A DNA stretch of 64,000 bases. Source: Candidatus Daviesbacteria bacterium. Lineage in GTDB: Bacteria > Patescibacteriota > Microgenomatia > Daviesbacterales > UBA10151. The stretch covers positions 25,073 to 89,072 of the forward strand of contig JAKFWZ010000078.1 of assembly GCA_021731695.1 (NCBI GenBank), given 5' to 3'. The notes below the pieces were generated by a model. That model ran no database searches and was not told the origin of the DNA. It saw only the letters and a list, made by a program, of their open reading frames with translations. The stretch's first letter is position 1; the number at the start of each line of letters is the position of its first letter. The translations under genes were made by a program, and so were the position numbers. Below, one piece after another: positions 256 to 64,000 of the stretch.

Positions 256-1020
256 ATGGAAATTTTAGGCTATATTTTATTTTTTACATTTTTAGGAAGT
301 ATGGGTTCCTTACTCGGAGGACTGGTTTTACTTAGGAGTAAGTCAATCGCCGAAAAAGTCTCGCACTATCTTTATTCGTATGCAGCGGGTGTTTTATTGG
401 GCACCGCATTTTTAGATCTGCTTCCTGAGGCAAGTGCCGAATCAGGAGATACAAATATTTTTCTTTGGACATTAGTCGGCATGCTTTCTTTTTTTCTTCT
501 GGTAAGATTTATTCATTGGTTTCATCATCATGATGATCACACGAAAGGGGGAACTGAATCGACAGTTCCTTTAATAATAATTGGTGATACAATTCATAAT
601 TTTATTGACGGGGTGGCAATTGCAGCAACATTTTTAGTCAGTATTCCCCTGGGGATTTTAACTACAATTGCGGTTGCAGTTCATGAGATTCCTCAGGAAA
701 TTGGTGATTTTGCAATTTTACTAAGAAAAGGGCTAAAGCGAAGTCGCGTTTTATGGATTAATATTTTAAGCGCCTGTGCTGCATTTGCAGGTGCAATTTT
801 AATGTTTTATCTTCAGGATTATCTTGAGGGGTCGCTGCCCATATTTCTGGCTTTAACTGCCGGATTTTTTATATATATCGCTTCATCAGACTTAATTCCT
901 GAAATCCATAAACAGGATAATCAGAGATTGGCATTTATTGAAAGTATATTATTGATTTTGGGGTCTGGTACGGTTTTTATTGTCGCAAAAGTTATAGAAA
1001 GTTTTGGTCTTCATGTCTGA
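256..1020 (+). CDS. ZIP family divalent-metal (Zn/Fe) permease
   Basis: Carries the HEIPQEIGDFAILL motif and a His-rich loop (HWFHHHDDH). It is a multi-TM hydrophobic protein, typical of ZupT/ZIP transporters. Confidence 0.75.
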   Translation: MEILGYILFFTFLGSMGSLLGGLVLLRSKSIAEKVSHYLYSYAAGVLLGTAFLDLLPEASAESGDTNIFLWTLVGMLSFFLLVRFIHWFHHHDDHTKGGTESTVPLIIIGDTIHNFIDGVAIAATFLVSIPLGILTTIAVAVHEIPQEIGDFAILLRKGLKRSRVLWINILSACAAFAGAILMFYLQDYLEGSLPIFLALTAGFFIYIASSDLIPEIHKQDNQRLAFIESILLILGSGTVFIVAKVIESFGLHV

Positions 1021-1552
1021 GCAGATAATTTCAGAAGTTGACGATAACGGTAAGTTTATAAAGTATATCCCCAGAATGTTGGGGCATACAGGAAATGGCA
1101 GAAGACATTTAGGAATAACAATTTTAGTTTATAACTCGGAGGGCCAGTTACTTCTTCAAAAAAGAAAACACATGGTGTTTGATAATGTTTGGTGTTTTAC
1201 TGCGGATACACATCCTTACAGACTTAGAAGCGGTGAAGCTGAAACTGTTGATGAAGCTTCAAAAAGAGCACTAAAAGAAGATTTTAATATTGAAAATATT
1301 TCTTTGGAAGATCTTGGATCATTTAATTATTTTGCGATTGATGGGAAGTATTGTGAGAATGAATACTGTGCAATGATGATTGGGGAGTATGATGGTGAAA
1401 TTAAAATGAACCCTGAAAATGGATATGATTTTGAATGGATGGATAAAAAAGATTTTATTAGAGACTTTAAAGAAAATCCGGATAAATGGGCGCCATGGGT
1501 TTTGGGCGGAATAGAAATATTAAAAGAAAAGGGATTTTTTGATGGAGTATGA
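1004..1552 (+). CDS. idi: Nudix hydrolase, type-1 isopentenyl-diphosphate delta-isomerase-like
   Basis: Nudix fold with an IDI-like core (ILVYNSEGQLLLQKRK...SGEAE...RALKEDFNI). It sits directly upstream of the mevalonate operon. Confidence 0.55.
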   Translation: MVFMSEQIISEVDDNGKFIKYIPRMLGHTGNGRRHLGITILVYNSEGQLLLQKRKHMVFDNVWCFTADTHPYRLRSGEAETVDEASKRALKEDFNIENISLEDLGSFNYFAIDGKYCENEYCAMMIGEYDGEIKMNPENGYDFEWMDKKDFIRDFKENPDKWAPWVLGGIEILKEKGFFDGV

Positions 1553-2078
1553 CGGCGAGCTCATTGATATTGTCAGTGAAAATAATGAAGTTATTGGAAA
1601 AGCTACAAGAGGAGAAGCTCACAGAAAAGGATTAATTCACCGGGCACTTTCTGTTTTAGTTATAAGCTCAAAAGGTGAGCTATTGCTTCAGCAAAGATCT
1701 GCAAGTAGATCAATTCATGCTCTCTCTTGGGATCTTTCAACCTCTGAACATGTTCAATCAGGTGAAGCATTTGAAAGTGCAGGAGAAAGATCTTTAAAAG
1801 AAGAGCTTGGAATCACTGCGAATGTTATTAAAGCCAGTAGTCCAAAATTGCAAAAAAGAGAATACCATTTGAAAAGCGAAATGGTTTATGAGAATGAGAT
1901 AGTTCTATCTTTAACAGCAAATCATGAAGGTCCTTTTAAACCAGATCCGAATGAAGTTGCACAGGTTAGTTTTTTTTCTGTTGATGAAATAGAAAAAATA
2001 ATTGAATCCGGAGAAAAATTTACACCTTGGTTTATTGACGAATGGGAGAATGTTAAATCGTTAATCGTTAATCGTTAA
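1539..2078 (+). CDS. Nudix hydrolase, second IDI-like paralog
   Basis: Region ALSVLVISSKGELLLQQRS...SGEAFESAGERSLKEELGI is paralogous to the preceding gene. Its last 6 codons and the stop are encoded by the heptamer tract. Confidence 0.5.
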   Translation: MMEYDGELIDIVSENNEVIGKATRGEAHRKGLIHRALSVLVISSKGELLLQQRSASRSIHALSWDLSTSEHVQSGEAFESAGERSLKEELGITANVIKASSPKLQKREYHLKSEMVYENEIVLSLTANHEGPFKPDPNEVAQVSFFSVDEIEKIIESGEKFTPWFIDEWENVKSLIVNR

Positions 2079-2133: not shown

Positions 2134-3111
2134 TTAGAATAAATGCTTATCTGAAAGTTTCGTCCCATCTCCCGGTTCGTTTATTATAATTTGTTTTACT
2201 TCAGGAATTTCTTTAAGTTTCTTTCCTAATTTTTTTACATCCCTCTTTTTAGTTATTAAATGAACATCCTGACCGGTGTTGACAGTAAAGTATACTGTGA
2301 GACCTTCATCCCGCCACTTTTTTGTAAGCTTCATGATTAAAAGCGAGTTAGGGTTCAAATAAATTAACGGTGGGTTTTGAGTCATATAAATCGAGTGGAG
2401 CTCTAATGCTTCCTGCTCAATAAATTCCCCTAATTTGGTAAAGTCTTTTTTCTCTATAATTCTTTTTAGTTCTTCGTTTTTCTTTTTCATTCTCGCAACT
2501 CTTAACTTGAGAAAAGGAGAAGAGTCGGCATTTTCCTGTCCCTCAGAAGTCGGGACTTCTTTTCGGTTTCTCGAAACAACGGCGACTACATCTGCGATAT
2601 CCCAATGATCTTTAGGAAAAATTGTTTTAGCGTAAGAAGTTTCACTTGTATCTCCGTCCATCCATTCTACAATTCCAGACGGAATTGATCTGCAAGATGA
2701 TCCAGATCCCTGGCGGGCTAAAATAGATAATTCTTTTTCAGATAAATTGAGAGCTGCTGCGCTAGCTGCTGCGACAGTCAAAGCAGCAAAACCAGAAGCG
2801 GATGATGATAAGCCGGTTCCGGTAGGGAAAGAATTAACTGAAATCACTTTTGCAAATGTTTCAATTCCGGCGAGGTTTCTGATCCGGTCTAAATGCTTTG
2901 AAACTTTTGCTGCTTCTGTATCAAGTTTTTCATTGTTTATTATTATATCATCTGCTTTTAATTTTTCATCAAACTGCACTGTTGTAGTTGTTAGTAAATT
3001 TGATAAAGTCATGGAAATTGAACCATTTATAGGAAGACGCAAAATTTCATCTTTGCGTCCCCAGTATTTTGTAAAAGCAATATTTGACGGCGCAATCGCA
3101 GTTGTTTTCAT
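2134..3111 (-). CDS. mvaD: Diphosphomevalonate decarboxylase (GHMP kinase superfamily)
   Basis: N-terminus is AIAPSNIAFTKYWGRKDE. Carries the GHMP ATP-binding motif PTGTGLSSSAS. Confidence 0.85.
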   Translation of the reverse strand: MKTTAIAPSNIAFTKYWGRKDEILRLPINGSISMTLSNLLTTTTVQFDEKLKADDIIINNEKLDTEAAKVSKHLDRIRNLAGIETFAKVISVNSFPTGTGLSSSASGFAALTVAAASAAALNLSEKELSILARQGSGSSCRSIPSGIVEWMDGDTSETSYAKTIFPKDHWDIADVVAVVSRNRKEVPTSEGQENADSSPFLKLRVARMKKKNEELKRIIEKKDFTKLGEFIEQEALELHSIYMTQNPPLIYLNPNSLLIMKLTKKWRDEGLTVYFTVNTGQDVHLITKKRDVKKLGKKLKEIPEVKQIIINEPGDGTKLSDKHLF

Positions 3112-4082
3112 TTTTCTATTCTAACTCCTTCTGCATTTACTTCAACTTTTAAAACTTGTCCGCCGACTTTTTTAATAGCATTTTCAATCGCAGATTTTTT
3201 TGATGGGGAAGTGAGAGCAATCATACAATCACCAACTCCAGCTCCTGATAATTTTGCACCAAACGCACCGGCATCTCTTGCGGCATTAATCATATCGTCC
3301 AATTTTTTAGAACTGACCCCTATTTTGAAAAGATGAGTCTGGTTTAGATTCATAAAATCGCCTGCCTTTTTGTAGTTTTCATCAACTAATGCATTTTTCC
3401 CAAGCATCACGACCTTTTCTATTTCGTTAAATATATGAGTATAAAATTCAGGCTTCTTCTTAATTTTTTCCTGAAGCTGTTTAACTATTGTGGGTGTATC
3501 CGCCTTAGTTCCTGAGTATCCAACTACAAGGGAAAAGTTTTTTAAATGAAGCGGCTTTATCGCTTTTCCGCCAGTTAGAAAATAGATGGTTCCGCCATAA
3601 ATGGCAGCGGCTATATCAAATCCTGAACCAACTCCGGCAATTTCCAGAACTGTCTTATACGATAAATCAAAAATTTCTTTGTTAGACAGATTTAAATTTG
3701 AAATTTCAGATAGTGCTTTAATTGCACAAACCGTAGAAGCAGAGGAGGAGCCAAATCCAAAAGTGGATTTAAAATCAGAAATTGTTTTAAATTTAAAGCC
3801 TGACTTTTGAGGATATTCTTTAATGAAATTTTTTAATGCAATCTCTGTAAATTTTGCTCCTTTTGGAATGTCGCCTTTGCCTAAATCAAAAATCTTTTTT
3901 TTGTAACCATCTATTCCAACATCTGGCGCATCTAATTCGAAATATGGTGCTTCAATAGTTGTTAGTTGAAGCTTCAGCCTTTGATCAACAGCAGTAACGA
4001 TACAAGGTCTATTGTAAACAACAGCATGTTCTCCAAAAAGCATTAATTTGCCGGGTGCTGAAACAGTAATTTGGTTTTTCAT
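3108..4082 (-). CDS. GHMP kinase, probable phosphomevalonate kinase (mevalonate-kinase-like)
   Basis: Motifs APGKLMLFGEHAVVY and GFGSSSAS. Overlaps its neighbours by 4 nt within the operon. Confidence 0.6.
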   Translation of the reverse strand: MKNQITVSAPGKLMLFGEHAVVYNRPCIVTAVDQRLKLQLTTIEAPYFELDAPDVGIDGYKKKIFDLGKGDIPKGAKFTEIALKNFIKEYPQKSGFKFKTISDFKSTFGFGSSSASTVCAIKALSEISNLNLSNKEIFDLSYKTVLEIAGVGSGFDIAAAIYGGTIYFLTGGKAIKPLHLKNFSLVVGYSGTKADTPTIVKQLQEKIKKKPEFYTHIFNEIEKVVMLGKNALVDENYKKAGDFMNLNQTHLFKIGVSSKKLDDMINAARDAGAFGAKLSGAGVGDCMIALTSPSKKSAIENAIKKVGGQVLKVEVNAEGVRIEK

Positions 4083-4996
4083 ATTGTGATTGAATAATAA
4101 TCGTATTTGTTTTTCTTTGCAAATTCTACTATGGTATTTGGATCTTCGTGAAAGGCTAAAATCATTCCCGAACCTTCTTTGATTCCACCAGCGCCAGATA
4201 TTTTTCCTGCTCCGCCTAGCGTTTCGATATTGTGAATAATCTGTTTAGCGGCCTCACCAACAACTCCAAGTTTTTCCAGATTTCTTTCAGCTTTTTTTAT
4301 TATTTTAATAAACTTCTCCTGATCTCCCTTTTTTAAAACTTTTGCCATTCGAGTTGCTAATGCTCCCTGGGATTGAAAAATACCAATTATTTCTGATTGC
4401 GACCTTGCATAATTATCTTTGACTAATTGAAGCATTTCAGCTGTTGTCTCAGCTGGTTTTCCTGAATTAATCAAAACCAGATTCGCTATCTCTTCCGGGA
4501 TTTTAAATCCAAGCGGTTTAATTTTATTTGTGGTCTTACCCTTTCTGAATAGAATAATTCCTGATTGTAAAACTGCGGCCAAATCTCCACCAGACGGATT
4601 GCCGTGAAATATTTTTTCTCCCTCGATAGCGATGTCAAAAATATCTTTTTCTGTATAATCAATTTTTAAAAACTTTAGTAAACAAATTGCAAAAGCTGAA
4701 GAAAGCGAGGCGGAAGTTCCGAGACCGGAGCCGACTGGTATTTGTGTTTTATCTATTTCTATTTTATACATGGGAATTTCCACCCCAAATTTTTCTTTGA
4801 TCTTTTTCTCAATAGAATTTTGCAATCTATAAATTGCATCATCATAATGAACAATCCCTAAAATTTCTTTAGTCTTTGATTTAGTTATTTTTGCTGAAAG
4901 ATATAAATTAACCGAAGCTAAAATTGCTGGTTTTCCGTATACAACACTATGCTCACCGATCAAATGAATTTTCCCTGGGATTGATATTTTAATCAT
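4079..4996 (-). CDS. mvk: Mevalonate kinase
   Basis: Motifs IPGKIHLIGEHSVVYG and PVGSGLGTSAS. The start was moved to the ATG at 4994-4996. The 5185 start in the ORF track is a TTG extension through a GC-rich structured element. Confidence 0.65.
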   Translation of the reverse strand: MIKISIPGKIHLIGEHSVVYGKPAILASVNLYLSAKITKSKTKEILGIVHYDDAIYRLQNSIEKKIKEKFGVEIPMYKIEIDKTQIPVGSGLGTSASLSSAFAICLLKFLKIDYTEKDIFDIAIEGEKIFHGNPSGGDLAAVLQSGIILFRKGKTTNKIKPLGFKIPEEIANLVLINSGKPAETTAEMLQLVKDNYARSQSEIIGIFQSQGALATRMAKVLKKGDQEKFIKIIKKAERNLEKLGVVGEAAKQIIHNIETLGGAGKISGAGGIKEGSGMILAFHEDPNTIVEFAKKNKYDYYSITI

Positions 4997-5130
4997 ATTA
5001 ATGAAGCACCACGGGCTTACGCCCGTGGTTTCTTCTAGCTTCAAGCGGCTAAGGTCGCTTGTCCTCACACTACGTGTTCGGAAAATCTTCATCCGCGAGC
5101 TAATGCTCGTGGTTTTAAGATTTGTCGCTA
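4997..5130 (+). ncRNA. GC-rich structured element A, a candidate small RNA or terminator cassette homologous to 11830-11935
   Basis: One hairpin is CCACGGGC-TTAC-GCCCGTGG followed by TTTCTTCT (5009-5036). A second is CGAGC-TAAT-GCTCG followed by TGGTTTT (5096-5117). The shared motif CTTCATCC..CGTGGTTTT is also present in element B. Confidence 0.3.
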
Positions 5131-5230
5131 TAAACCAATAACCCAATATAACAAATAAAGCCAATGTCCAATAAAGTCGCAACAAAAATAATTAGGAATT
5201 GGTTTATTGGGTTATTTATATATTGGTTTA
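5131..5230. repeat. Partial copy of the dyad CCAAT/ATTGG intergenic element
   Basis: Contains aaaccaataacccaat...ccaatgtccaat...aattggtttattgggttat...attggtttatt. It shares motifs with 7791-7915 and 50297-50425. Confidence 0.5.
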
Positions 5231-5581
5231 TTATTTTATGGCGGGCCTCACTTTAACTATATATTCAATAATTTCCGATGGATTAACTTTTTTACCTCTT
5301 CTTATAACAGTCACAACTTTTAAATTTGGTTTTAATGAAGATTCTTCACAATCAACAATTTGAGCTGGCATTTTTTCTCCGTTTTCAAATTCAACAATAC
5401 CAGAAATATACGGAATAAAATCTTCAAAGCCTAAAGGAGGTACTGAAATTTTTGTCCACACCAAAAGTTTACCCGTTCTATTAAGGTACTTATTTAAAGT
5501 TTTATGGTGTCTCCAGACTTGTGATGGGTTAGTCATTTTGTAATATATGTACGGCGACTGTTGCACCTGTTCCTCCGACAT
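5231..5581 (-). CDS. DUF35-type OB-fold protein, partner of the thiolase/HMG-CoA synthase pair
   Basis: 116-aa protein with a C-terminal OB-fold-like region. It lies immediately downstream of the thiolase and HMGCS genes, as in archaeal operons. The true start may be Met16 at about 5536. Confidence 0.5.
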   Translation of the reverse strand: MSEEQVQQSPYIYYKMTNPSQVWRHHKTLNKYLNRTGKLLVWTKISVPPLGFEDFIPYISGIVEFENGEKMPAQIVDCEESSLKPNLKVVTVIRRGKKVNPSEIIEYIVKVRPAIK

Positions 5582-6662
5582 TTTGCGTTAATCCGATTTT
5601 CGGATTCTTAATTTGTCGGTTTACCGCAGTGCCTTTTAATTGTTCATAAACTTCAATAATTTGTTTCACACCAGTTGCACCAACCGGGTGACCGCAGCCC
5701 TTAAGGCCTCCTGAGGTGTTAACTGGCAGATTGCCGCCAAGCTTTGTTATTCCGCTCTCAATAAATTTTCCGCCATCACCTTTTTTGCAAAACCCTAAGT
5801 CTTCCATTGCCAGAATTTCAGCGATTGTAAAACAATCATGCACTTCGAGTAAGTCAACTTCTTTTTGAGTAATGCCTGCTTGTTCGAAGGCTTTTTTAGA
5901 AGCCCTTATTGTTGCTGATATTTCATTCAAGTTTTTTCTTTCTGATAGTCCGACAGAATCACTTGCGACAGCACTGGCACTGATGTAGACATCTGATGGT
6001 TTGGAAGAGCTTAATACAACAGCAGCAGCCCCGTCAGTAATGGGTGATGAATCAAAAAGTGTTAAAGGGTCAGCGATCATTGAAGAATTCAAAACTTTAT
6101 CAACAGAAATTTCAAAAGAGTATTGGGCTTTAGGATTTAAAGAAGCATGATAGTGATTTTTTACTGCAACCGAAGCCAGCTGTTCTCTCGTTGTTCCATA
6201 TTTTTTCATATGAGATTTTGACATCAATGCATAAAGAGCGGGAAAAGTTAGACCGGATTGTCTCTCGGCTTCCGAGGCTGCTCCCATTAGAGCTGTACCG
6301 ATTTCTGAAGTTGATAAATCTGTCATTTTTTCAACACCAATAACTAAAACATTTTCATAAAGTCCGGATAAGACTCCGGTAACTGCCTGATGAACCGCAA
6401 CGCCCCCTGAAGCACAGGCTGCTTCAACATGAGCGCTCGATGTATTAATTCCGAGCTTTTGTGCAACAAGCGCCCCCAGATGATCCTGACCGCTGGCTTT
6501 TCCATATAACATGTTTCCGACAATCACTGCATCAATCTGACCTGCTTTTAATCCAGAATCTTTTAAAGCTTCTGATCCCGCATCATATGCCAGATCCAAA
6601 AGTCCTTTATCCCAAAGTTCGCCAAATTTTGTAATACCGGAACCAAGTATGTTTACTTTCAT
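5529..6662 (-). CDS. Acetyl-CoA C-acetyltransferase (archaeal-type thiolase)
   Basis: N-terminus MKVNILGSGITKFGE. Thiolase Cys motifs (VEAACASGG; CGHPVGATG). Confidence 0.8.
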   Translation of the reverse strand: MKVNILGSGITKFGELWDKGLLDLAYDAGSEALKDSGLKAGQIDAVIVGNMLYGKASGQDHLGALVAQKLGINTSSAHVEAACASGGVAVHQAVTGVLSGLYENVLVIGVEKMTDLSTSEIGTALMGAASEAERQSGLTFPALYALMSKSHMKKYGTTREQLASVAVKNHYHASLNPKAQYSFEISVDKVLNSSMIADPLTLFDSSPITDGAAAVVLSSSKPSDVYISASAVASDSVGLSERKNLNEISATIRASKKAFEQAGITQKEVDLLEVHDCFTIAEILAMEDLGFCKKGDGGKFIESGITKLGGNLPVNTSGGLKGCGHPVGATGVKQIIEVYEQLKGTAVNRQIKNPKIGLTQNVGGTGATVAVHILQND

Positions 6663-6674
6663 AATTTAAAATTT

Positions 6675-7772
6675 TTAAACGTACCCTTTCGACATTAATA
6701 TTTTTAGTAGATAAGAGTAGTTAATATATTCTTTATTTTTGATTTGATCTGCAACCTTTGTTTTTTTCTTCTTTTGATAAGCAGTGATTAGGGGAGTAGC
6801 TTCCAGGATAAAAGCGTCGGATCCGGCTCCTGATCCGTAACTACATAAAAATATTTTTTGGTTTGGTTTAGCGATATCTAAAACTGCAGCTAATCCTAAA
6901 AGAGAAGAGGCAGAGTAGGGGTTGCCGATATCCTCAACTTTAAAACCTGCTTCTAATTGTTCTTTTTTAAAGCCTAATTTTTTTGCCACCTCTTTTGGGA
7001 ACTTACTGTTTGGCATATGAAAAACAACATAATCAAAATCTGAGGGTTTCGTCTTGGTTTTTTCCATCAAATGAGTTGATGCACTCATTACATGAGTGAA
7101 ATACGCCGGATCTCCGGTGAATCTGCCTCCGTGTGAGGGAAATTTTTGTCCGTCGCGTCTCCAAAAATCCGGTGTATCGGATGAATAGGATGTTGATTCG
7201 ATTACATTGGCGATGACTTTCTTGCCGCTTCCTAAAACGGATCCTTCAGCTCCTTTTGGGTTCTTGCTAGTTGAATCGGAACCCAAAATAAAAGCGGCGG
7301 ACGCAGAAGCTGCCGTGTATTCTAAAGCATCCCCGGGTTTTGCTTGTGCAACATCGGACCCAATCACTAAACCGTATTTATTTTTCTTAAGTTCATCCAT
7401 CATGGAGATAAGCCTCATCGCTGCGGTTGCGGCTTTGCAGGCAAATTGAGTGTCGATAGCCAAATAGTTGTGCGGAAGACCCAATATTTCGCCAACGATA
7501 GTAGAAGTAGGTTTTACTGCATATGGGTGAGATTCTGAACCAACCGCTAAAGCTTTAATGTCGGCCAAGGGGATTTGACCAGATTCGATTGCAGCCATAC
7601 CTGCTTCGACAGCAAGTGTCGTGGCGTCCTCGTCCAGTGAAGCTACGGATTTTTCACTGAGCCCTAAACCTCTTTCGATTTCTCCGGCATTCTTATTCCA
7701 GAAATTCGCAATTTCAGAAATCTTAACGCGATATTTAGGAATGTAAGTTCCGTATGAAATTATTCCAATCAT
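6675..7772 (-). CDS. mvaS: Hydroxymethylglutaryl-CoA synthase (archaeal type)
   Basis: N-terminus MIGIISYGTYIPKYRV. Motifs FACKAAT and GSGAGSDAF. Confidence 0.8.
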   Translation of the reverse strand: MIGIISYGTYIPKYRVKISEIANFWNKNAGEIERGLGLSEKSVASLDEDATTLAVEAGMAAIESGQIPLADIKALAVGSESHPYAVKPTSTIVGEILGLPHNYLAIDTQFACKAATAAMRLISMMDELKKNKYGLVIGSDVAQAKPGDALEYTAASASAAFILGSDSTSKNPKGAEGSVLGSGKKVIANVIESTSYSSDTPDFWRRDGQKFPSHGGRFTGDPAYFTHVMSASTHLMEKTKTKPSDFDYVVFHMPNSKFPKEVAKKLGFKKEQLEAGFKVEDIGNPYSASSLLGLAAVLDIAKPNQKIFLCSYGSGAGSDAFILEATPLITAYQKKKKTKVADQIKNKEYINYSYLLKILMSKGYV

Positions 7773-7790
7773 GTTTAATATTTAATAAAC

Positions 7791-7915
7791 CAATAAACCA
7801 ATAAACCAATTTCAAATAAAATTGCCTTGGGACTTCGTCTAAAACCAATTCCCAATGCGCTCCAATCTTATTGAAATTTGTATATTTGACATTGGTTTAT
7901 TTGTATATTCTAGCG
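7791..7915. repeat. Dyad CCAAT/ATTGG intergenic element, copy 2
   Basis: Structure is (aaaccaat)x3, then gacttcgtctaaaaccaattcccaat, then tttgacattggtttatttg. The core is 24/26 identical to 50348-50373. The arms are inverted (aaaccaatgtcaa vs ttgacattggttt). Confidence 0.6.
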
Positions 7916-9055
7916 TCCTTTCCTTCCAAGTTTAACATGCGAACTTGCCAGGGTGCCTTCTGAAAGTGAAGCAAGTAGTGAGAGTTCGCCGGCTAAAACT
8001 GAAGCGGCTATAACTTCAGAAAATTCTAGCACATCTTGAGCACCAATTATATTTAGAGCCTCTTTTTGCGAAGGCAGATTGGTTCCTCCGCCGACGGTCC
8101 CAACCATTAAGGAGGGGAGATAGACAGAGAAATATAAATCACCTTTTTCTGTAACTTCTGCACTGGTTACTCCTAAACTTCCTTCAACAATTTGTCCCAG
8201 GTCCTGTCCCGTTGCAGCAAAAATTGCAGCAATTATATTTGCAAAATGTGCATTAAATCCAATAGATCCGGCCATTGCCGAACCCGTTAGAACTTTTCTA
8301 TAAACTAAGTCAGCTATTTTTTCAGGTGTGGTTTTTAAAATCTCGCGAACGACAGATTTTTTAAGTGTGCAATCTGCCCAAACCATTTTTCCCCGACCTT
8401 CTATAAAATTCAGCCAAGCCGGTTTTTTATCAATATCATAATTTCCTGAAATAGAAATGCAACTTGATCCGGTATTTTTTTCAATAAACGGGATAACATC
8501 AGTAACAGCGATAGTTGCCATATTCATTCCCATTGCGTCTTTTGAATCAAAAGAAAATCTCACAAATAAATTTTTCCCTGCAAGGCTGGAAGTGATTGTA
8601 TTAAGTTTTAAATGAGAAGAGGTGCTTTCGCAAATCTTGGCAATTTTTCCGAAATTTCTCCCCAACCATTTTTTTATTTCAAAAGAGTGAGTGATGCCAC
8701 GGGTTTTAAAAACCGGACTTCTGGTTACACCAACATTTTGGATTTCGACAGAAGCTCCTCCTGAAAGAGCTACGGCTTTGCAGCCTCTTGAAACGGAAGC
8801 AACTAAAGCGCCTTCTGTTGTGGCGAGGGGAATGTAATATTTGCGCGTGGCTTGTGGCGCGTGGCGAATGGAAATTGGACCTGCAATTCCCAGAGGAATC
8901 TGAACAGAACCGATTAAGTTTTCAATATTTTTACCATTTACAGATTCCTCTGAAAAGTTAAAACCGGAAATTGCATTAAGATTTATTTTAAGCTCTGATT
9001 CTAAAAAATCTTTCCTACTCGCAGCTGTTTTAAAATCGCGAAGACTTTTGCTCAT
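7910..9055 (-). CDS. mvaA: HMG-CoA reductase
   Basis: Motifs ENLIGSVQIPLGIAGP, DAMGMNM and GTVGGGT. Confidence 0.85.
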   Translation of the reverse strand: MSKSLRDFKTAASRKDFLESELKINLNAISGFNFSEESVNGKNIENLIGSVQIPLGIAGPISIRHAPQATRKYYIPLATTEGALVASVSRGCKAVALSGGASVEIQNVGVTRSPVFKTRGITHSFEIKKWLGRNFGKIAKICESTSSHLKLNTITSSLAGKNLFVRFSFDSKDAMGMNMATIAVTDVIPFIEKNTGSSCISISGNYDIDKKPAWLNFIEGRGKMVWADCTLKKSVVREILKTTPEKIADLVYRKVLTGSAMAGSIGFNAHFANIIAAIFAATGQDLGQIVEGSLGVTSAEVTEKGDLYFSVYLPSLMVGTVGGGTNLPSQKEALNIIGAQDVLEFSEVIAASVLAGELSLLASLSEGTLASSHVKLGRKGR

Positions 9056-9081
9056 AAGCGAGATGTCATTCTAACAAATCT

Positions 9082-10218
9082 GTGCGCAAATGGGAAATTT
9101 GTGTTACAGTATCGGGCATGGATTTTACAGAGTTCTTAAAACTAAATTCAAAAAAAATTGATGAAGAAGTTGCAGAAATATTGCAGAATGAATTGGTATT
9201 CACTAAGAGATTAACCCCTCAGCTTAATGAATTTAAAAAAGCATCAATAGGCGGAAAAAGAGTTAGAGGAGCACTGGTATTGCTGGGGTATAGAATTGCC
9301 GGTGGAAAAAATTCTAAAGAAATTCTAAAAGCCTCAGCAGCTTTTGAAATCTTTCAAACTTCAATTCTTGCACAAGATGATGTAATCGATAAATCTTTAA
9401 CCAGAAGAGGGAAAAAATCCTTAGCAGCTTCTTTGGGAAATGATCATAAAGCTTTAGCTGATACGATTTGTCTAACAGATCTGGGATTTTTTATATCATA
9501 TAAAACTCTGGCTCTGCTTAAAATTGAGGAAAAATATAAGAATCAGGCGATAGTGCACTTTTCTGAAATGTCTGTGAGTACTGGTTTAGGTGAAATGCTT
9601 GATGTGGAGATTTCAATGAATAATGACATTAGTGAAGGCGAAATTTTAGAAGTGGCAAAGCTCAAAACTGCAATTTATACAATTTCCGGCCCCTTAGTGT
9701 TAGGGGCAATTCTTGCCGGAGCTAAAGATAAGCTAATTGAAGAACTTGAAAATTTTGGAGAGAATTTAGGAGTTGCATTTCAAATTCAGGACGACATATT
9801 AGGAGTTTTTGGAACTGAAAAAAAAACAGGAAAATCAGATACCTCAGACATAGAAGAAGGGAAGAAAACACTACTCTTAAGTCATGCGCTAGAGAATGCA
9901 AAAGTTGAGTCTAAGAGGACTCTGGTAAAAATCTACGGCAGTAGTAATATTGATAAGTTGGATTTAGAACAGGTTAAAAAGATTTTTACTGAAACAGGAA
10001 GTCTTGATTACGCAAAAGCCAGAGCTGAGGATTATTTTAGCAAGGCAGAAAGCACATTGAAAAATCCGCAACTTGATGTTTTAAGAGATCTGATTGATTT
10101 TATTGCCAAGCGGGAAAGTAGTGGGCTTCAGCTGGCGAATAAACAGAAATCATCCCGCGCCGCAAGAGGAGCCGCGGACTTAATTCCGCGGAGACTCATT
10201 AAAAAAAGGAAAAAATGA
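9082..10218 (+). CDS. trans-Polyprenyl diphosphate synthase (FPP/GGPP synthase family)
   Basis: Two Asp-rich motifs (LAQDDVIDKS and FQIQDDILG). The real start may be Met13 at 9118. Confidence 0.8.
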   Translation: MRKWEICVTVSGMDFTEFLKLNSKKIDEEVAEILQNELVFTKRLTPQLNEFKKASIGGKRVRGALVLLGYRIAGGKNSKEILKASAAFEIFQTSILAQDDVIDKSLTRRGKKSLAASLGNDHKALADTICLTDLGFFISYKTLALLKIEEKYKNQAIVHFSEMSVSTGLGEMLDVEISMNNDISEGEILEVAKLKTAIYTISGPLVLGAILAGAKDKLIEELENFGENLGVAFQIQDDILGVFGTEKKTGKSDTSDIEEGKKTLLLSHALENAKVESKRTLVKIYGSSNIDKLDLEQVKKIFTETGSLDYAKARAEDYFSKAESTLKNPQLDVLRDLIDFIAKRESSGLQLANKQKSSRAARGAADLIPRRLIKKRKK

Positions 10219-10304
10219 CTGAAAATTATATTCCAAAACACATAGCAATAATTATGGATGGAAATGAGTCTTTTTCGAAGCCTCTTTCCTGGCGAATTCT
10301 ATGA
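10215..10304 (+). CDS. 29-codon upstream ORF mimicking the UppS N-terminus, ATGA-coupled on both sides
   Basis: Encodes MTENYIPKHIAIIMDGNESFSKPLSWRIL. Its ATG overlaps the TGA of the prenyl synthase and its TGA overlaps the uppS ATG. It is a degenerate copy of uppS codons 10-25. Confidence 0.3.
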   Translation: MTENYIPKHIAIIMDGNESFSKPLSWRIL

Positions 10305-11047
10305 GTATTAATAAACAACCAAGCGAAGAATTTGTTCCTAGACATATTGCCATCATAATGGACGGAAATAGGCGCTGGGCGCGGGTTAGGGGACTTGAGG
10401 ATATCGAGGGACACGAGAAAGGTTCAGAAACTTTGGAAAAAATTGTAGAAGCCGCAGCCAAAGCGGGTGTTAAAACACTTACGGTTTATGCACTCTCAAC
10501 AGAAAATATAAAGGAGCGAGCTAAAAGGGAGATGGGGGGATTATTTAATTTAATGAAATCTTCTTACAACAAAAAAATAAAGAAGATGATGAAAAACGGG
10601 GTGCGGGTAGAAATCTTAGGAGAATTAAATGGTTTGCCTTCTATAATAAAAAATGTAATTAATGAAATCAGAAAAACATATATAGATAACGAAGCGATTA
10701 AATTAAACATTGCCCTAAATTATGGAGGCAAGAAAGAGCTAGTTGAGGCAGTTAAGGACTTAATAAAAGAAGGAATTGATTTAAATGAGCAAAGCTCGAA
10801 ACTTAAAGAATATGTTTCTAAATTAAGCGAATCTGATATCAGTAAAAAACTTTATACTAAAGGAGATACTGATCCCGAACTTGTCATCAGAACCGGCGGA
10901 AGGATTAGACTTTCAAATTTCTTACTCTGGCAGACTGCATACTCAGAGCTTTATTTTACAAAAACTCTTTGGCCGGATTTTGATGAAAAAGAATTTAAAA
11001 AAGCACTTAGCTGGTACAAAAGACAAAAAAGAAATTTTGGGAAGTAA
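10301..11047 (+). CDS. uppS: Undecaprenyl-diphosphate synthase (cis-prenyltransferase)
   Basis: Motifs PRHIAIIMDGNRRWA and RTGGRIRLSNFLLWQTAYSELYF. Confidence 0.9.
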   Translation: MSINKQPSEEFVPRHIAIIMDGNRRWARVRGLEDIEGHEKGSETLEKIVEAAAKAGVKTLTVYALSTENIKERAKREMGGLFNLMKSSYNKKIKKMMKNGVRVEILGELNGLPSIIKNVINEIRKTYIDNEAIKLNIALNYGGKKELVEAVKDLIKEGIDLNEQSSKLKEYVSKLSESDISKKLYTKGDTDPELVIRTGGRIRLSNFLLWQTAYSELYFTKTLWPDFDEKEFKKALSWYKRQKRNFGK

Positions 11048-11088
11048 AATCCATTGACATAGTGTACGCTTGTCAATATTATTAACTC

Positions 11089-11373
11089 ATGAACACTGTA
11101 AAAGTATCCGCCACCAAAGCTAGGAATAATTTCTTCGAACTTTTAAATCAGGTCGTACTTGGTGCCCGCATAATCATTGTGAAAGATAGAAAGGAGATTG
11201 CAGTCCTATCTCCTAAAAAAAACAAAACTGACTGGAAAGCGCTTCGCCTGGCGACCAAAAAATCACACGGAGCTTTAAAAGACTACGATCCAGAAGATAA
11301 CCCGCTTAGGAAAACAGGAGCGGCTGACTTCTTGGGTAAATGGGACACCAAAGATTACAAAATAGGAGGTTAG
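11089..11373 (+). CDS. Phd/YefM-family antitoxin
   Basis: N-terminus TKARNNFFELLNQVVLGARIIIV. Overlaps the downstream PIN gene. Confidence 0.6.
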   Translation: MNTVKVSATKARNNFFELLNQVVLGARIIIVKDRKEIAVLSPKKNKTDWKALRLATKKSHGALKDYDPEDNPLRKTGAADFLGKWDTKDYKIGG

Positions 11374-11762
11374 TTTCACTGAAATTAGTACTGGACACTA
11401 GTATATTGATTGACCATCTAAGAGGTGGTGATAAGTGGAAACGCATTCTAAGCGAGCTCGAAGAAGATACCGAAATCTATATATCTTCCATAGTGCTCTT
11501 TGAATTATATTCAGGAAAAAGTAGTCAGAATCCACAAATTTCCAGCAAAATCCAACAACTGGTCAAAAATTTTCAAAAAATAGAAATTGATGCCTATTTG
11601 GCGCAAAAAGCTGGAGAGCTTTATCGGGATATGAAACAGACTATTCAAATCCCAGATTATATAATAGCTGCCAGTGCATTGGAAATTGGTGCTCAAGTTG
11701 CAACTTTAAACAACAAAGACTTTGAACAGATCCCCGGTCTTAAACTATATTCAGTAACATAA
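11340..11762 (+). CDS. vapC: PIN-domain toxin (VapC-like)
   Basis: Motif LVLDTSILIDHLRGGD and later acidic residues. The start is uncertain: the ATG at 11340 overlaps the antitoxin, and the alternative lies near an AGGAGG at 11365. Confidence 0.65.
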   Translation: MGHQRLQNRRLVSLKLVLDTSILIDHLRGGDKWKRILSELEEDTEIYISSIVLFELYSGKSSQNPQISSKIQQLVKNFQKIEIDAYLAQKAGELYRDMKQTIQIPDYIIAASALEIGAQVATLNNKDFEQIPGLKLYSVT

Positions 11763-11767
11763 AATCC

Positions 11768-11822
11768 TCTGGCTGGATTTTGATGAAAAGGAATTCAAAA
11801 AAGCCCTAAGTTGGTATGAGCC
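11768..11822 (+). repeat. Direct repeat of the uppS 3' end (orphan fragment), about 85% identical to 10968-11025
   Basis: ctctggctggattttgatgaaaaggaattcaaaaaagccctaagttggtatgag matches the uppS C-terminal codons LWPDFDEKEFKKALSWY. Confidence 0.75.
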
Positions 11823-11829
11823 TCTGGGG

Positions 11830-11935
11830 ACTCCTCTTCGCTTCGCCCGTAGTTTCTCTTCCTGCCCGCCTTCGGCGGGATTCGCCTACCGGCGAAGCAA
11901 ACTTCATCCAGGACGCACATCCGTGGTTTTCGTTT
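11830..11935 (+). ncRNA. GC-rich structured element B, a candidate sRNA or terminator homologous to element A
   Basis: Outer stem gcttcgcc/ggcgaagc encloses a cccgcc-TTCG-ggcggg tetraloop hairpin. Then comes CTTCATCC and a weak hairpin plus CGTGGTTTT. Confidence 0.3.
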
Positions 11936-11995
11936 GAAGGAATAAAAAACAAAAAAGATGGAAATGAGGAACTATAAAAAGAGGTAAAGTTAGGT

Positions 11996-12535
11996 CTAAG
12001 GCTGCTTTGCTGATTTTGAGGATTCGCTTGCTCCCATTTCAGCGGGTCTGAACAAAGCTGCTGACCCGGAGGCGGTTGGGATAGGAGGCGGGGCCTTGTA
12101 TGGGACATTGTATATAATTGAAGATATCGTAAACTTATCCTCAACCATATCTAGGTTTACTGTAAGTTGTGTATTTAAATCAATTGACTCTGGGTCAACG
12201 TCTGGGATTTGTTGGTTATCTGAAGTAGTTTTATTTATATAAAATGTTTTGCCTGTTTCAAATGCTCCTTCAGTGCCGTTTTGGTTTTTGACAGTAATCC
12301 ATTTTCCGTCAACTTTTACAACTTTTCCTTCAATCGCGGCCGATTGTCTGGAAAAAACAGGTTTAGCTTTTAGGTTTTCCGGAGTCAATTTATTAGAACC
12401 TAAATTCATCCCCAAAATAAGACCAAAAATAATTCCTACAATTAACCCAAGTAAAATTTTCGCAATTTGAAAGCTTTTGCTCGATGGAATTTTTTGATTT
12501 ATATTAGGTTGGACATAAGGGCTTTCCGAATTCAT
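11996..12535 (-). CDS. Hypothetical N-terminally anchored protein
   Basis: One TM helix (ILLGLIVGIIFGLILG) followed by a soluble domain. Confidence 0.4.
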   Translation of the reverse strand: MNSESPYVQPNINQKIPSSKSFQIAKILLGLIVGIIFGLILGMNLGSNKLTPENLKAKPVFSRQSAAIEGKVVKVDGKWITVKNQNGTEGAFETGKTFYINKTTSDNQQIPDVDPESIDLNTQLTVNLDMVEDKFTISSIIYNVPYKAPPPIPTASGSAALFRPAEMGASESSKSAKQP

Positions 12536-14019
12536 ATTTTTTTCTCAAGCGCCTCGATCCGAGCTTTTAGCCTGTCGTTTTCAAGTTTAAGCTCTTGGAT
12601 TGCCTTTGTCGTGTATGGAATTACATCTCTATAATCCATAGAATAATATCCGCTGCCCTCCATATGTACACTTCCTGGCAGGATTGGCAAAGCATCCTGG
12701 GCAATAAATCCGCTGGCATTCTTTCTGCCGTCCAGATAATCAAATGTAGCGGGTTTTAGTTGGGCAACTATTTCAAGGCCGCTATTGTCACCTTCCAGAT
12801 AGCGGATATTTTCTTTTAACCTTTTGTCTGAGCCGCAATTCCCCATACTGCCTGAATTTGTGAAACATTGAGGATTGGAACCTGGTGCGTTCATAGCCGG
12901 ATCTTTGAAATCTCCAGTACCTCCAGCTAATATAATACTTCCGACTACAGAGAGTTTTTCAGAGGGATTTGTATCTCCAATCCCTACATTACCCAGTACA
13001 TCATTTAATACAATATTCCTCCAGGCAACACCAGGTTCGTGGTATCTAATGGCAAAATAGGGGGGCACAGGCGACGACGGGGTCACTGCAAACATCTCCA
13101 GCCCTTTTGTATTATTAATAGCAGGGGTTCCTAAAAAGATATTCCCTATTCCGGCACCCGGGTTGATCCTGGCGCTGCCGCAGACCATAAACGTAGCCCC
13201 GCCTCCCAGAGCTCCTCCACACCCCGCTCCTGATGGAGATCCGGAGTCGAATCCGTGCTGCATATACACAGGTTTATTGAATGCACGTACCCAACTAGAA
13301 TCCGTCATCCACCAGCCACCTGCATAAGTTTCGTTATACCAGCCAGCAGCCCCATAACTTCTATGCCAGCCTCCTCCCTGATCGATCACAGTTCCCGCAC
13401 TCATTGTTAAAGCTCCCTGAATAAGTGCATTTCCATTTACATCCAATGGCTGACTGGGGTTTATAGTTCCTATACCGACCCTTTTAGTAGTTGGATCAAC
13501 ATATAAAGTTTCTCCGGCCCTGATTTTTCCGATATTCGTACCCGGATCACCAGGAAAGTTTAAGTAGAGTTCTCCTTGGGCATTAATTACAAGATGAGTA
13601 TTCGTTCCTCTAATATAGTTAGTAGTAGTTGAAAATCCGTTATCAGTGCGTATTTGTAAGAGATTTTGGAGACCAGTCAAGTTAAGTTGTTCAACTGATA
13701 GGGTTTTGAGGACTGAGTTGGCACTGGGATCAAGATTATATGCAGCATTATTTAAATCTATCAGACTGCGGATTCCGGCTGCTCCGCCTGGGGTCAGTTG
13801 AAGGCTCTGCCCACTGGTTGCACCATTCCCCTGAAGGTAAAAATTTAAATTGGGAGGACTCGCAGTATCTCTGCTGGTTACCCAGTCTTGATTGTTGGTC
13901 TGAGCGAAACTCACGCTGCTTAAGCTCAAGACCGCTGCAAATCCCAGAAACAAAATTGAAAAAAAAGCATACATGATTTTAAATGGAAATTTTATATCTA
14001 TAGTTTCGAATTTATACAT
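12532..14019 (-). CDS. Tailspike/fibre-like surface protein with C-terminal S74 intramolecular-chaperone (auto-cleaving) domain
   Basis: Signal/anchor at the N-terminus and a Gly/Asn-rich beta-rich body. The C-terminus reads GSDKRLKENIRYLE...GFIAQDALPILP...AIQELKLENDRLKARIEALEKKI. Confidence 0.6.
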   Translation of the reverse strand: MYKFETIDIKFPFKIMYAFFSILFLGFAAVLSLSSVSFAQTNNQDWVTSRDTASPPNLNFYLQGNGATSGQSLQLTPGGAAGIRSLIDLNNAAYNLDPSANSVLKTLSVEQLNLTGLQNLLQIRTDNGFSTTTNYIRGTNTHLVINAQGELYLNFPGDPGTNIGKIRAGETLYVDPTTKRVGIGTINPSQPLDVNGNALIQGALTMSAGTVIDQGGGWHRSYGAAGWYNETYAGGWWMTDSSWVRAFNKPVYMQHGFDSGSPSGAGCGGALGGGATFMVCGSARINPGAGIGNIFLGTPAINNTKGLEMFAVTPSSPVPPYFAIRYHEPGVAWRNIVLNDVLGNVGIGDTNPSEKLSVVGSIILAGGTGDFKDPAMNAPGSNPQCFTNSGSMGNCGSDKRLKENIRYLEGDNSGLEIVAQLKPATFDYLDGRKNASGFIAQDALPILPGSVHMEGSGYYSMDYRDVIPYTTKAIQELKLENDRLKARIEALEKKI

Positions 14020-14120
14020 GTCTTAATCAAAACAGAAAATTAATACTTATGTCAACTAATCTGTTTTTTGGTCGGTTTCATCTGAATATTCCAGAACTCG
14101 ATTTACCCGGTTAAATAACT

Positions 14121-15122
14121 TCAGGTCCTTTGCCATAGGCAACCTGAGATTATTAAATTGCTTATAGTCCAAGATCTGTCAGGAGGAGGATTTAATAGTA
14201 CTTCCGTACAAATAGGAGGGGGGAGAGGTGTGGCTGAAGGATAGGGGGTGCTGGTAACGCCGGGGATAGTATAATGCTGGTCTTCGGTTGTAATAATCAA
14301 ATCCTTTGTAAATATCCCGCCTCTTAAAAGATATAAATACTTGGCCTGTTTATTTACTACTTCGGCAGGCTGGACATTTACCGCAAGGCTTCTAATGAAC
14401 TGGATTGCACTCGCAGAGCCCAGATCGGTTTTGTTTAGGGAAATTAAGCTGCCGTTGATTACGAGTTGCTGGGTTGAAGGAGTATTTACACAGCCTGGGC
14501 CGGTTACATACGAGGAGCAAATATATCCCGTAGTACTAGGCAGAGGTAGTCCATTCCCGGTTGAAATTAATACAGCATTAACCTGAGTAACGTTTGAATA
14601 AATATTTATATTGTCCCGGACTATAAAGACTAAGCCCGAATTCATATCGGCATTGGCATAGGTGATATTCCCTGTGATGTTTAAATCTCCCTGGACAAAA
14701 ATAACCTGAACTCCTGTTCCCGTACCTGTTACATTATTGATAGTTAGGGTGTTGGGTTGTAAATAAACTCCACTTCCTGCAGGAAAGTTTAAGGTTTGTA
14801 CCGGACTTTGGGGAGGCGCTGTAGTTTTTTTCGCCGCCGATCTGTTTAGAGCATAGAACTGGTCTTCAAGATCCTGATAGGTTGGAACTTTGAAATCCCG
14901 GTATTGAGCATTGTTTCCGGTAACGCAGATCTGCCCTGGATTCCCGGTGTTCCCGGTTGAGCCGCCGACTGCTGAAATTAACCCTTCATTTAAATCACTT
15001 AGGAGGCATTGAGCAAAAACCTTGGAATCAGTTTTTGATAACAGATAAACATTATAAAAAGTGGTCACAGCAAGTACAAAAAGCAGGAAAAATTTTAAAA
15101 TATCAAGCCATTGCCGGTTCAT
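14121..15122 (-). CDS. Secreted/anchored Thr/Gly/Asn-rich beta-helix-like protein
   Basis: N-terminal TM helix. Body rich in NITGNITYANADMNSGLVFIV-type repeats. Confidence 0.4.
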   Translation of the reverse strand: MNRQWLDILKFFLLFVLAVTTFYNVYLLSKTDSKVFAQCLLSDLNEGLISAVGGSTGNTGNPGQICVTGNNAQYRDFKVPTYQDLEDQFYALNRSAAKKTTAPPQSPVQTLNFPAGSGVYLQPNTLTINNVTGTGTGVQVIFVQGDLNITGNITYANADMNSGLVFIVRDNINIYSNVTQVNAVLISTGNGLPLPSTTGYICSSYVTGPGCVNTPSTQQLVINGSLISLNKTDLGSASAIQFIRSLAVNVQPAEVVNKQAKYLYLLRGGIFTKDLIITTEDQHYTIPGVTSTPYPSATPLPPPICTEVLLNPPPDRSWTISNLIISGCLWQRT

Positions 15123-15149
15123 TTTTCAGGAAGTATGAGTCGGTACATT

Positions 15150-36031: not shown

Positions 36032-36341
36032 CTTGCGTAAAAGTAGGAAAAAGACCTGTCGATACTATCTAACCGGATAGCTTCGACTCCAAAAGAGTGG
36101 TGGGAAAAAACACGATCAATTAAATGATTGTGAGACAAGAGTATAAGTTTCATGAAAGTGAAGCCAAGCTCTGTCAATTCCAAATTTTAGTAAGCAAAGC
36201 TTGCGATAGTTCCGGCTAACGCCGTGTAACTATCTAAGTAATACTTACTTCGAAAACAATAAATCGAAATTTCACTTTCACAAGTGATACAGCGTTTTAG
36301 AGTTGGAAAAACTTTTTAAGTGTTTTAAAAACACTTTATTT

Positions 36342-36384
<43 letters not shown>

Positions 36385-36589
36385 TAAGCATGCAAGTCGA
36401 ACGATCTGTAGCAATACAGGTAGTGGCGGACGGTCGAGTAACGCGTGGGGATCTGCCTTAAAGTTGGACATAGCTCATCGAAAGGTGGGGTAATTTCCAA
36501 TGTGAACGTAAGTTCAAAGCCGCAAGGCGCTTTAAGATGAACCCGCGTCCTATCAGCTAGTTGGTGGGGTAAAAGCCTACCAAGGCATC

Positions 36590-36621
<32 letters not shown>

Positions 36622-37159: not shown

Positions 37160-37210
<51 letters not shown>

Positions 37211-62254: not shown

Positions 62255-64000
<1,746 letters not shown>

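Follow-up and report, generated by a model that had tools for sequence, protein, structure and literature searches.

The 64,000-nucleotide stretch of contig JAKFWZ010000078.1 analyzed here, referred to as the window, carries a mevalonate pathway gene cluster close to its start. Open reading frames (ORFs) were called across all 64 kb and searched against Pfam and NCBIfam profiles to give the gene list in Table 1. Seven co-oriented genes occupy 2134-9055 on the minus strand and every one has a family match: HMGR, HMGCS, thiolase, DUF35, two GHMP kinases (here K2 and K1) and a decarboxylase (MvaD). ORFs and family matches agree on this inventory, which is the one given in the preliminary description of this DNA.

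The junctions K2/K1 and K1/MvaD are 4-nt overlaps, suggesting translational coupling, while the thiolase and DUF35 genes overlap by 8 nt and a 12-nt gap separates the HMGCS and thiolase genes. By comparison with homologues, K2 probably starts at M64 of its ORF (coordinate 4996), and the most likely DUF35 start is 5536, where an ATG is found within the thiolase stop context ATGACTAA. A scan for promoters and terminators returned no more sites than shuffled sequence did, so it does not define the transcription units. HMGR scored 415.9 on TIGR00533 (cut-off 441.8) as opposed to 57 on the class II model. On the far side of HMGR, and transcribed divergently from it, are a trans-prenyl synthase, whose best NCBIfam matches are GGPP/IdsA-type synthases with none reaching cut-off, and UppS, about 1.2 kb from HMGR. 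The Nudix pair that the preliminary description called upstream is convergent with the 3′ end of the operon.

Table 1. Features of the mevalonate cluster and its flanks in the window. Profile scores are in bits, with model cut-offs where available.
Feature	Position	Strand	Length	Profile match or remark
IDI-1-like Nudix protein Nud1	1004..1552	+	182 aa	NF002995 67.7 (cut-off 127)
IDI-1-like Nudix protein Nud2	1539..2078	+	179 aa	NF002995 87 (cut-off 127)
Mevalonate (di)phosphate decarboxylase (MvaD)	2134..3111	-	325 aa	PF22700 192; TIGR01240 255.6 (cut-off 171)
GHMP kinase K1	3108..4082	-	324 aa	TIGR00549 192 (cut-off 163)
GHMP kinase K2	4079..4996	-	305 aa	ORF to 5185; TIGR00549 155.7 (slightly below cut-off 163)
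Intergenic insert, DUF35/K2	4997..5230		~235 nt	
DUF35 OB-fold protein	5231..5536	-	101 aa	ORF to 5581; PF01796 39.9 (cut-off 27.1)
SCP2/archaeal-type acetoacetyl-CoA thiolase	5529..6662	-	377 aa	NF004720 488 (cut-off 420)
Archaeal-type HMG-CoA synthase (HMGCS)	6675..7772	-	365 aa	TIGR00748 395 (cut-off 353)
Intergenic insert, HMGR/HMGCS	7773..7909		137 nt	
Class I HMGR (NADPH type), soluble	7910..9055	-	381 aa	PF00368 399
trans-Isoprenyl diphosphate synthase (short chain, GGPP/FPP class)	9082..10218	+		PF00348 182
Undecaprenyl diphosphate synthase (UppS, cis-IPPS)	10301..11047	+		PF01255 253; TIGR00055 238 (cut-off 110)
Motif TTGG[GT]TTATTGGTTTAT, at 235-nt insert (region 5130-5239)	5130-5146; 5199-5215; 5223-5239	-; +; +	17 nt	
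Motif TTGG[GT]TTATTGGTTTAT, in 137-nt insert (region 7785-7908)	7785-7809; 7892-7908	-; +		
Motif TTGG[GT]TTATTGGTTTAT, third intergenic region	50415-50431			

Among named sequences, those closest to the decarboxylase and to DUF35 come from Candidatus Daviesbacteria and other Patescibacteria. An exact-sequence look-up of the window's decarboxylase matched no contig on record. A bacterial 16S gene lies at 36336-37743 and a 23S gene starts at 62260 and runs to the window end at 64000, a separation of about 24 kb that holds protein-coding genes and tRNAs. The 16S match covers the full Rfam model within just 1408 nt. Both the separation of 16S from 23S and a short 16S are typical of genomes of the Candidate Phyla Radiation (CPR). 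Judging from these genes, the host is a Daviesbacteria-like Microgenomates (CPR/Patescibacteria) bacterium.

For comparison, one genome per species was scanned, which gave 66 loci, and their gene order was read by ORF calling and BLAST. In about 45 of these 66 species-representative loci the order is HMGR, HMGS, thiolase, DUF35, K2, K1, (Nudix) and MvaD, with the trans-prenyl synthase and UppS genes pointing away at one end and Nudix and ZIP genes pointing toward the cluster at the other. This order spans Microgenomates including Daviesbacteria, Shapirobacteria and Dojkabacteria, is rearranged in Peregrinibacteria, and is repeated in the gene calls of a genome-sized JGI contig of about 1.1 Mb. 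Many of the closest relatives (L003-L066) were deposited as 'uncultured Gammaproteobacteria bacterium' metagenome-assembled genomes (binchicken, SRP co-assemblies), labels that look wrong given gene content and similarity that are clearly Microgenomates-like. Two loci of one Microgenomates lineage (L001/L002) have additional genes inside the operon, a SAM-dependent methyltransferase gene between DUF35 and K2 (6314-7138) and, between K2 and K1, a gene for 149 aa that matches no Pfam family (8063-8512).

The window also holds the gene set of the CPR type, namely archaeal AACT, HMGS, HMGR-I, two GHMP kinases, a DPMD homologue and an IDI-1 homologue. Hoshino & Gaucher 2018, Mol Biol Evol, report this CPR gene set, typically syntenic with cis-IPPS, with enzymes that form their own clades near archaeal ones for the early steps (PMC6107057). 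The 2016 Peribacteria genome paper described a near-complete mevalonate pathway and remarked that few bacteria other than CPR have this route (PMC4736985). Since the gene set is published and the order recurs in so many species representatives, the region is a known CPR-type mevalonate cluster, standard for Microgenomates and not new, and the suggestion that such a pathway is notable in a reduced bacterium is not supported. UppS adjoins the mevalonate genes in most of the 66 loci, and the autonomy in lipid carrier synthesis that had been proposed is a reasonable reading of this synteny.

Thiolase, HMGCS and DUF35

The first three enzymes named in the preliminary description as an archaeal channeling triad do show archaeal affinity. 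Their best PDB matches are three chains of one structure, 6ESQ, which together with 6ET9 represents the channeling complex of Methanothermococcus thermolithotrophicus (Vogeli et al. 2018, cited via PMC6996347). The thiolase matched 6ESQ_A with 319 bits compared to 50 or less for thiolase II, scored 456 on the M. thermolithotrophicus model NF053570, and keeps the motifs CAS, HDCF and GHP. These follow the CxS, HDxF and GHx pattern that sets archaeal ACATs apart from the repurposed PhlC/MucB (PMC12960953). HMGCS matched 6ESQ_I with 318 bits compared to about 71 for the Gram-positive enzymes of E. faecalis and S. aureus, and reached 460 on NF003274 but only 127 on the bacterial model TIGR01835. 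Its active-site segments GSESHPY, FACKA and FHxPN align to 6ESQ_I, including the Glu, Cys and His residues.

DUF35 was the call at which the preliminary description had said it might fall, and the call is upheld by the PF01796 profile, by sequence and by fold. The best PDB match is 6ESQ_E (E = 9e-8), with about 82 of 127 target residues aligned. An AF2 model (pLDDT 83) has an N-terminal helix and a five-stranded barrel, and a Foldseek search with it returned 6esq_E at the top with 33% identity (TMq 0.69); the matches behind it are all further DUF35 subunits from thiolase-like complexes. The N-terminal helix carries WRxHK, resembling the archaeal WRHMKE, though so short an alignment is not significant alone. 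The protein has a single Cys; the rubredoxin-like zinc ribbon of about 30 residues is deleted and the OB fold is retained. All 47 homologues examined are 98-125 aa long and consist of the OB domain only, and all 41 homologous copies in the comparative loci contain 0-2 Cys, with one Dojkabacteria copy keeping a Cys-free remnant at the ribbon position. The zinc ribbon has been lost from DUF35 across the whole clade. The triad stands as a trio of genes with matching chains, but its DUF35 is not the archaeal two-domain form. All DUF35 structures characterised so far bind zinc (PMC6996347), which weighs against scaffolding by a DUF35 lacking the ribbon, plausible though it is.

Similarity of all three proteins to the archaeal complex could also reflect a recent horizontal acquisition from archaea, and with bacterial HMGS/ACAT/DUF35 complexes of other functions on record (PMC12960953), the triad could instead form a C-acyltransferase of the PhlABC/MucABC kind with no part in mevalonate synthesis. 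We think it very improbable that either is the case. The GC content is unremarkable, identity to the archaeal proteins is merely moderate, and about 45 CPR species, sharing 45-77% identity, have the triad at this place in the operon, which argues for long vertical residence. Against an acyltransferase, the HDxF motif of the thiolase is absent from PhlC/MucB (PMC12960953), PhlA, PhlB and PhlC score far below the archaeal chains, and the triad is flanked by HMGR and mevalonate kinases.

Kinases, decarboxylase and Nudix proteins

To name the two kinases, we compared them with mevalonate kinases (MVKs) and phosphomevalonate kinases (PMKs, also PMVKs) from the annotated mvk-mvaD-PMK operons of S. 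aureus, E. faecalis, Streptomyces, Listeria and L. fermentum. Comparison of five annotated PMKs with nine MVKs gave two PMK signatures, GSxGD[IL]A..YGG and GAGGGDC. K2 has the catalytic motif HGNPSGGD, as in MVKs (HGNPSGxD). The K1 motifs GVGSGFDIAAAIYGG and GAGVGDC match the PMK patterns and not those of MVKs. Across the K1 family the first pattern is GSGFD[IV]AAAxYGG, and 52 of 53 members have SGAGxGD with its motif III Asp. The five bona fide PMKs share both motifs; all nine MVKs, three archaeal among them, have Gly at this position. On the PMK models TIGR01220 and NF040957 (cut-offs 166 and 500), K1 scored 94 and 93.5 and K2 54 and 46, compared to 634 for a true PMK. These scores are below those on the MVK model TIGR00549 for both kinases, and to curated models both do look MVK-like, as the preliminary description said.

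Gene content adds to this. The Peribacteria cluster (L057) has a single GHMP kinase, a member of the K2 family by its score of 256 bits on the K2 profile hidden Markov model (HMM) versus 18 on the K1 HMM; K1 is absent and the decarboxylase is similar to phosphomevalonate decarboxylase (PMD, also MPD) with an intact catalytic Asp. Peregrinibacteria loci with a decarboxylase that has Asn at this position have K1 too, and among the comparative loci K1 was found only where the Asn-type decarboxylase occurs. Thus K1 co-varies with the type of decarboxylase and K2 is the universal kinase. From motifs and gene content together, K2 is probably a mevalonate kinase of bacterial/eukaryal type and K1 probably a phosphomevalonate kinase with an archaeal-MVK-like backbone and PMK signature motifs. 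That the two act in this order and feed a diphosphomevalonate decarboxylase (DMD, also MDD) is the reading we moderately favour.

The decarboxylase has its best PDB match in 6N0X/6N0Z (297 bits, versus 212 for S. aureus MDD), 6N0X being the PMD of Anaerolinea thermophila (PMC9254496). Its identity is 48% to Chloroflexi/archaeal relatives and about 40% to Firmicutes MDDs. At the position of the catalytic Asp (S. epidermidis D283) the window protein has Asn278, and 119 of its 120 closest homologues have Asn there too, the motif reading NTGQD in place of DAGPN. According to PMC9254496, DMD, PMD and MBD enzymes all conserve this Asp, and the Asn-type clade, as read from these alignments, is an undescribed natural exception in the family. 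The same source states that a Sulfolobus DMD with D281N keeps decarboxylase activity and that Thr or Val at this position converts the enzyme into a kinase (PMC9254496). Given the activity of D281N, decarboxylation is the likeliest function of the Asn-type enzyme. A compensating swap (D283N with N287D) was considered and rejected, as some members have Asn at both positions (7 of the 120 homologues and 8 loci).

Substrate specificity was read at the positions of Dellas et al. 2013 (PMC3857490), where MDDs have Lys21, Ser192 and Arg193 as ligands of the beta-phosphate and lack Arg27. The CPR clade shows a mixture of MDD-like and MPD-like residues. Position 21 is Arg or Lys in the CPR clade (Arg21 in the window), basic as in MDDs, while wild-type PMD has Asn and the engineered 6N0Z variant Lys. 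Positions 193 and 196 also differ in a Bacteriovoracaceae cluster with a classical kinase set and are therefore unreliable, and variation at the substrate positions extends to other DMD-family clades (L058).

Both Nudix proteins resemble isopentenyl diphosphate (IPP) isomerases, with Nud2 matching the human and E. coli IDI structures and Nud1 matching IDI structures at E = 2e-11. In an alignment with 59 homologues, both keep the metal ligands (His25, His32, His69, Glu114 and Glu116) and with them the catalytic Glu116. Nud1 also keeps Tyr104 and Trp161; Nud2 has Leu at the Tyr104 position. Cys67 is canonical in Peregrinibacteria, Peribacteria and Micrarchaeota homologues. In Microgenomates, Nud1 reads either W-D...[S/A]-T-H or W-C...D-T-H, so that an acidic residue is always present at one of two neighbouring positions. 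The Nud1 gene is beside mvaD in about 35 loci, and in some Microgenomates the decarboxylase is fused to a Nudix domain (protein P0120, and ORFs of about 500 aa at the decarboxylase position in L025 and L065), supporting a functional link of the Nudix protein to the last steps of the pathway. The "IDI-like" label given previously is borne out by the structure matches and metal ligands; plain "IDI" would be too firm a name for proteins that score below the cut-offs and are without Cys67.

Several observations weigh against the assignments above. K1 exceeds the TIGR00549 cut-off for MVKs, scored 185 on the MVK HMM as opposed to 107 on the PMK HMM (the K2 family also scored higher on the MVK HMM), and grouped with the M. 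mazei MVK at 98% bootstrap in a neighbor-joining tree, with this pair sister to bacterial PMKs at 92%; the tree is a rough one, from a distance method on 298 columns with a single archaeal MVK. Of characterised enzymes, a PMD is closest to the decarboxylase (45.6% identity to that of A. thermophila, compared to 39.8% for the S. aureus MDD); the residues Arg27 and Thr192 resemble those of MPDs, and Arg193 is absent (Ser193 in the window). The score of the window protein on the DMD model does not settle its activity, since the proven A. thermophila PMD also exceeds that cut-off (282.6) and is below the cut-off of the PMD model; the DMD HMM cannot separate the two. An IPP-forming isopentenyl phosphate kinase (IPK) or an IDI-2 could lie elsewhere in the genome, as the window covers 64 kb. 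Lastly, the catalytic Cys67 is replaced by Asp in Nud1 and Ser in Nud2, and both are under the IDI-1 cut-off.

These points can be arranged into two other readings. The names could simply follow the HMMs, with K1 an archaeal-type MVK, K2 a divergent PMVK derived from an MVK, and the decarboxylase a DMD. Because K1 is globally closest to archaeal MVKs, this is a serious rival, albeit one that we find rather unlikely. In addition to the model score and the tree, the closest structures to K1 are archaeal MVK (136 bits for that of M. mazei), and Hoshino & Gaucher describe the CPR MVK as near that of archaea, with a CPR PMVK listed separately (PMC6107057). It would, however, leave the PMK-type motifs in the MVK, assign the PMVK step to the kinase with canonical HGNPSGxD and the lower score on the PMK model, and make a PMVK of the family that provides the sole kinase in the Peribacteria cluster, where the kinase content must include MVK.

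The other reading is the Chloroflexi/haloarchaeal order, in which one kinase forms mevalonate 5-phosphate, a PMD converts it to isopentenyl phosphate, and the second GHMP kinase, or an IPK of amino-acid-kinase fold encoded elsewhere in the genome, forms IPP. This is a weaker rival than the conventional naming of the kinases and we consider it quite improbable. The match to the A. thermophila PMD and the residues at 27, 192 and 193 are in its favour, as is the finding that the nearest non-CPR relatives of the decarboxylase include one on an archaeal contig (L050) about 650 nt from an IPK; some Microgenomates also have IPK (PMC6107057). However, a motif scan and tblastn with the L050 IPK as seed detected no IPK in the window, nor in any CPR locus up to 10 kb from the decarboxylase; position 21 is always Lys or Arg, as in DMDs, and K1 has PMK motifs. 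The second GHMP kinase always accompanies the Asn-type decarboxylase and is absent where the wild-type PMD signature occurs (L057). We know of no isopentenyl phosphate kinase with the GHMP fold, which also counts against this order. Our preference therefore stays with K2 as MVK, K1 as PMVK and a DMD.

Peribacteria may differ from the window in this respect. The L057 cluster (7930-15357) has one K2-type kinase, a canonical Cys-containing IDI-1, and a decarboxylase whose residues N21/R27/S192/T193/H196/D283 are the signature of wild-type PMD. This gene content suggests that Peribacteria use the MPD route, and such a route would explain the 'missing' PMVK step of the 2016 genome paper (PMC4736985).

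Intergenic inserts and neighbouring genes

The operon in the window has inserts of 235 nt (DUF35/K2) and 137 nt (HMGR/HMGCS) that are absent from relatives. The DUF35-K2 gap is -4 to about 80 nt in most relatives, and HMGR shares positions 3824-3827 with HMGCS in L001/L002. The motif TTGG[GT]TTATTGGTTTAT occurs 7 times as opposed to 0.1 expected, only in three intergenic regions, two of them at the inserts, where the copies are inverted. It could be an operator/promoter element or a small repeat element. On the minus strand, the 235-nt insert folds with a minimum free energy of -79.9 kcal/mol (z = -7.2 versus shuffled controls) and has a GC-rich hairpin with a GUAA (GNRA) loop, ACCACGGGC-GUAA-GCCCGUGGU, about 10 nt 5′ of the K2 start. 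Searches of Rfam with this insert and with the window gave no known RNA family for it.

A ZIP-family zinc transporter gene (256-1020, plus strand) is kept beside the Nudix/mevalonate genes in about 30 Microgenomates loci. It is a curious neighbour given the loss of the zinc site in DUF35. Directly after UppS is a Phd/YefM-like antitoxin and PIN-domain toxin pair (11089-11762, plus strand). Farther on, the minus strand at 12532-14019 encodes a 495-aa protein in which a Peptidase_S74 domain (endosialidase chaperone) occurs together with a stretch like the shufflon N-terminal domain; it may act at the surface in the manner of a tail fibre or pilus tip.

Proposed pathway and comparison with known systems

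Taken together, the upper, lower and downstream steps would form the following pathway, which as a whole we judge somewhat more probable than its alternatives combined. Acetyl-CoA would be condensed by the archaeal-type thiolase and HMGCS, predicted to be held together by a minimal zinc-free DUF35 as they are by the two-domain DUF35 in the archaeal complex. Class I HMGR would then reduce HMG-CoA to mevalonate, and the products of the three translationally coupled GHMP-fold genes would take mevalonate to IPP, with K2 at the mevalonate kinase step, K1 at the phosphomevalonate kinase step, and the decarboxylase acting on mevalonate diphosphate despite the Asn at its catalytic Asp position. The Cys-less IDI-1-like Nudix proteins are candidates for IPP/DMAPP isomerisation, and the adjacent trans-IPPS and UppS would lead to a polyprenyl carrier lipid. 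Of this, the data show what the genes are, that the first three enzymes have archaeal affinity and that the cluster is conserved; we infer that a complex forms, which kinase is which, what the decarboxylase acts on and that the Nudix proteins are isomerases.

A broader proposal is that the lower pathway of Microgenomates is a biochemically distinct variant that annotation misreads, with K1, the decarboxylase, DUF35 and the IDI-1-like proteins all involved. We hold this tentatively and would sooner expect it to fail in some part than to hold jointly. K1 may be a true PMVK on an archaeal-MVK backbone that is automatically annotated as MVK, and by its place in the rough tree could represent a surviving intermediate stage between MVK and a PMVK that arose from it. 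The decarboxylases may be the only natural DMD/PMD/MBD clade without the catalytic Asp, the DUF35 scaffold may work without zinc, and the IDI-1-like enzymes may use a carboxylate for Cys67. As far as we found in the literature, these residue-level departures have not been described, and they lift the cluster slightly above routine pathway annotation. The pathway finding itself matters little, as the CPR mevalonate route and its archaeal-like early enzymes are already in the literature. That route already feeds arguments on isoprenoid synthesis in the universal ancestor LUCA, and such evolutionary arguments rest on putative labels of function, MVK, PMVK and DPMD as well as IDI-I. If the "archaeal-like CPR MVK" is truly a PMVK, published MVK/PMVK trees need to be re-read, and an Asn-type decarboxylase and zinc-free DUF35, if true, would refine what counts as essential in these enzyme families.

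Compared to the CPR set of Hoshino & Gaucher, the window has the same archaeal-type early enzymes, HMGR-I, pair of GHMP kinases, DPMD-family decarboxylase and IDI-1-like genes, the same cis-IPPS synteny, and a lineage that is Microgenomates too. The DUF35 gene is not mentioned in that paper (0 occurrences in PMC6107057), and its consulted sections do not describe the Asn-for-Asp change, Cys-less Nudix proteins or PMK-type motifs in an archaeal-MVK-like kinase; its functional labels derive from phylogeny only (PMC6107057). The M. thermolithotrophicus complex is matched by three adjacent genes whose products each have their own chain as best match, with thiolase and HMGCS catalytic motifs kept and the DUF35 OB fold and WRxHK helix in place. 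The window differs in a DUF35 of the type without the zinc ribbon (0-1 Cys and 98-101 aa versus about 130) and in an HMGCS with an insertion of about 17 residues.

For the decarboxylase, the closest solved structure is the A. thermophila PMD 6N0X, with which it shares Arg27 and the lack of Arg at 193, while the window has Arg21 where PMD has Asn, Gln196 where PMD has His, and Asn278 at the catalytic Asp. Thr192 corresponds to the Thr of Roseiflexus-type MPDs of the Chloroflexi MPD/IPK route (PMC3857490), where A. thermophila has Ser, but in contrast to that route the window-type decarboxylase always occurs with a second GHMP kinase and no IPK nearby. The Gram-positive mvaK1-mvaD-mvaK2 operon (S. 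aureus, E. faecalis, Listeria) likewise has two GHMP kinases co-transcribed with a decarboxylase, and the probable reaction order of MVK, PMVK and DMD is the same. The gene order differs, the PMVK candidate in the window scored 94 bits on the Gram-positive PMK model (cut-off 166), and its isomerase candidate is IDI-1-like and not IDI-2. For the early steps, the Gram-positive pathway has thiolase II where the window encodes an SCP2-type thiolase, a bacterial HMGCS where the window has an archaeal one, and HMGR of class II where the window has class I.

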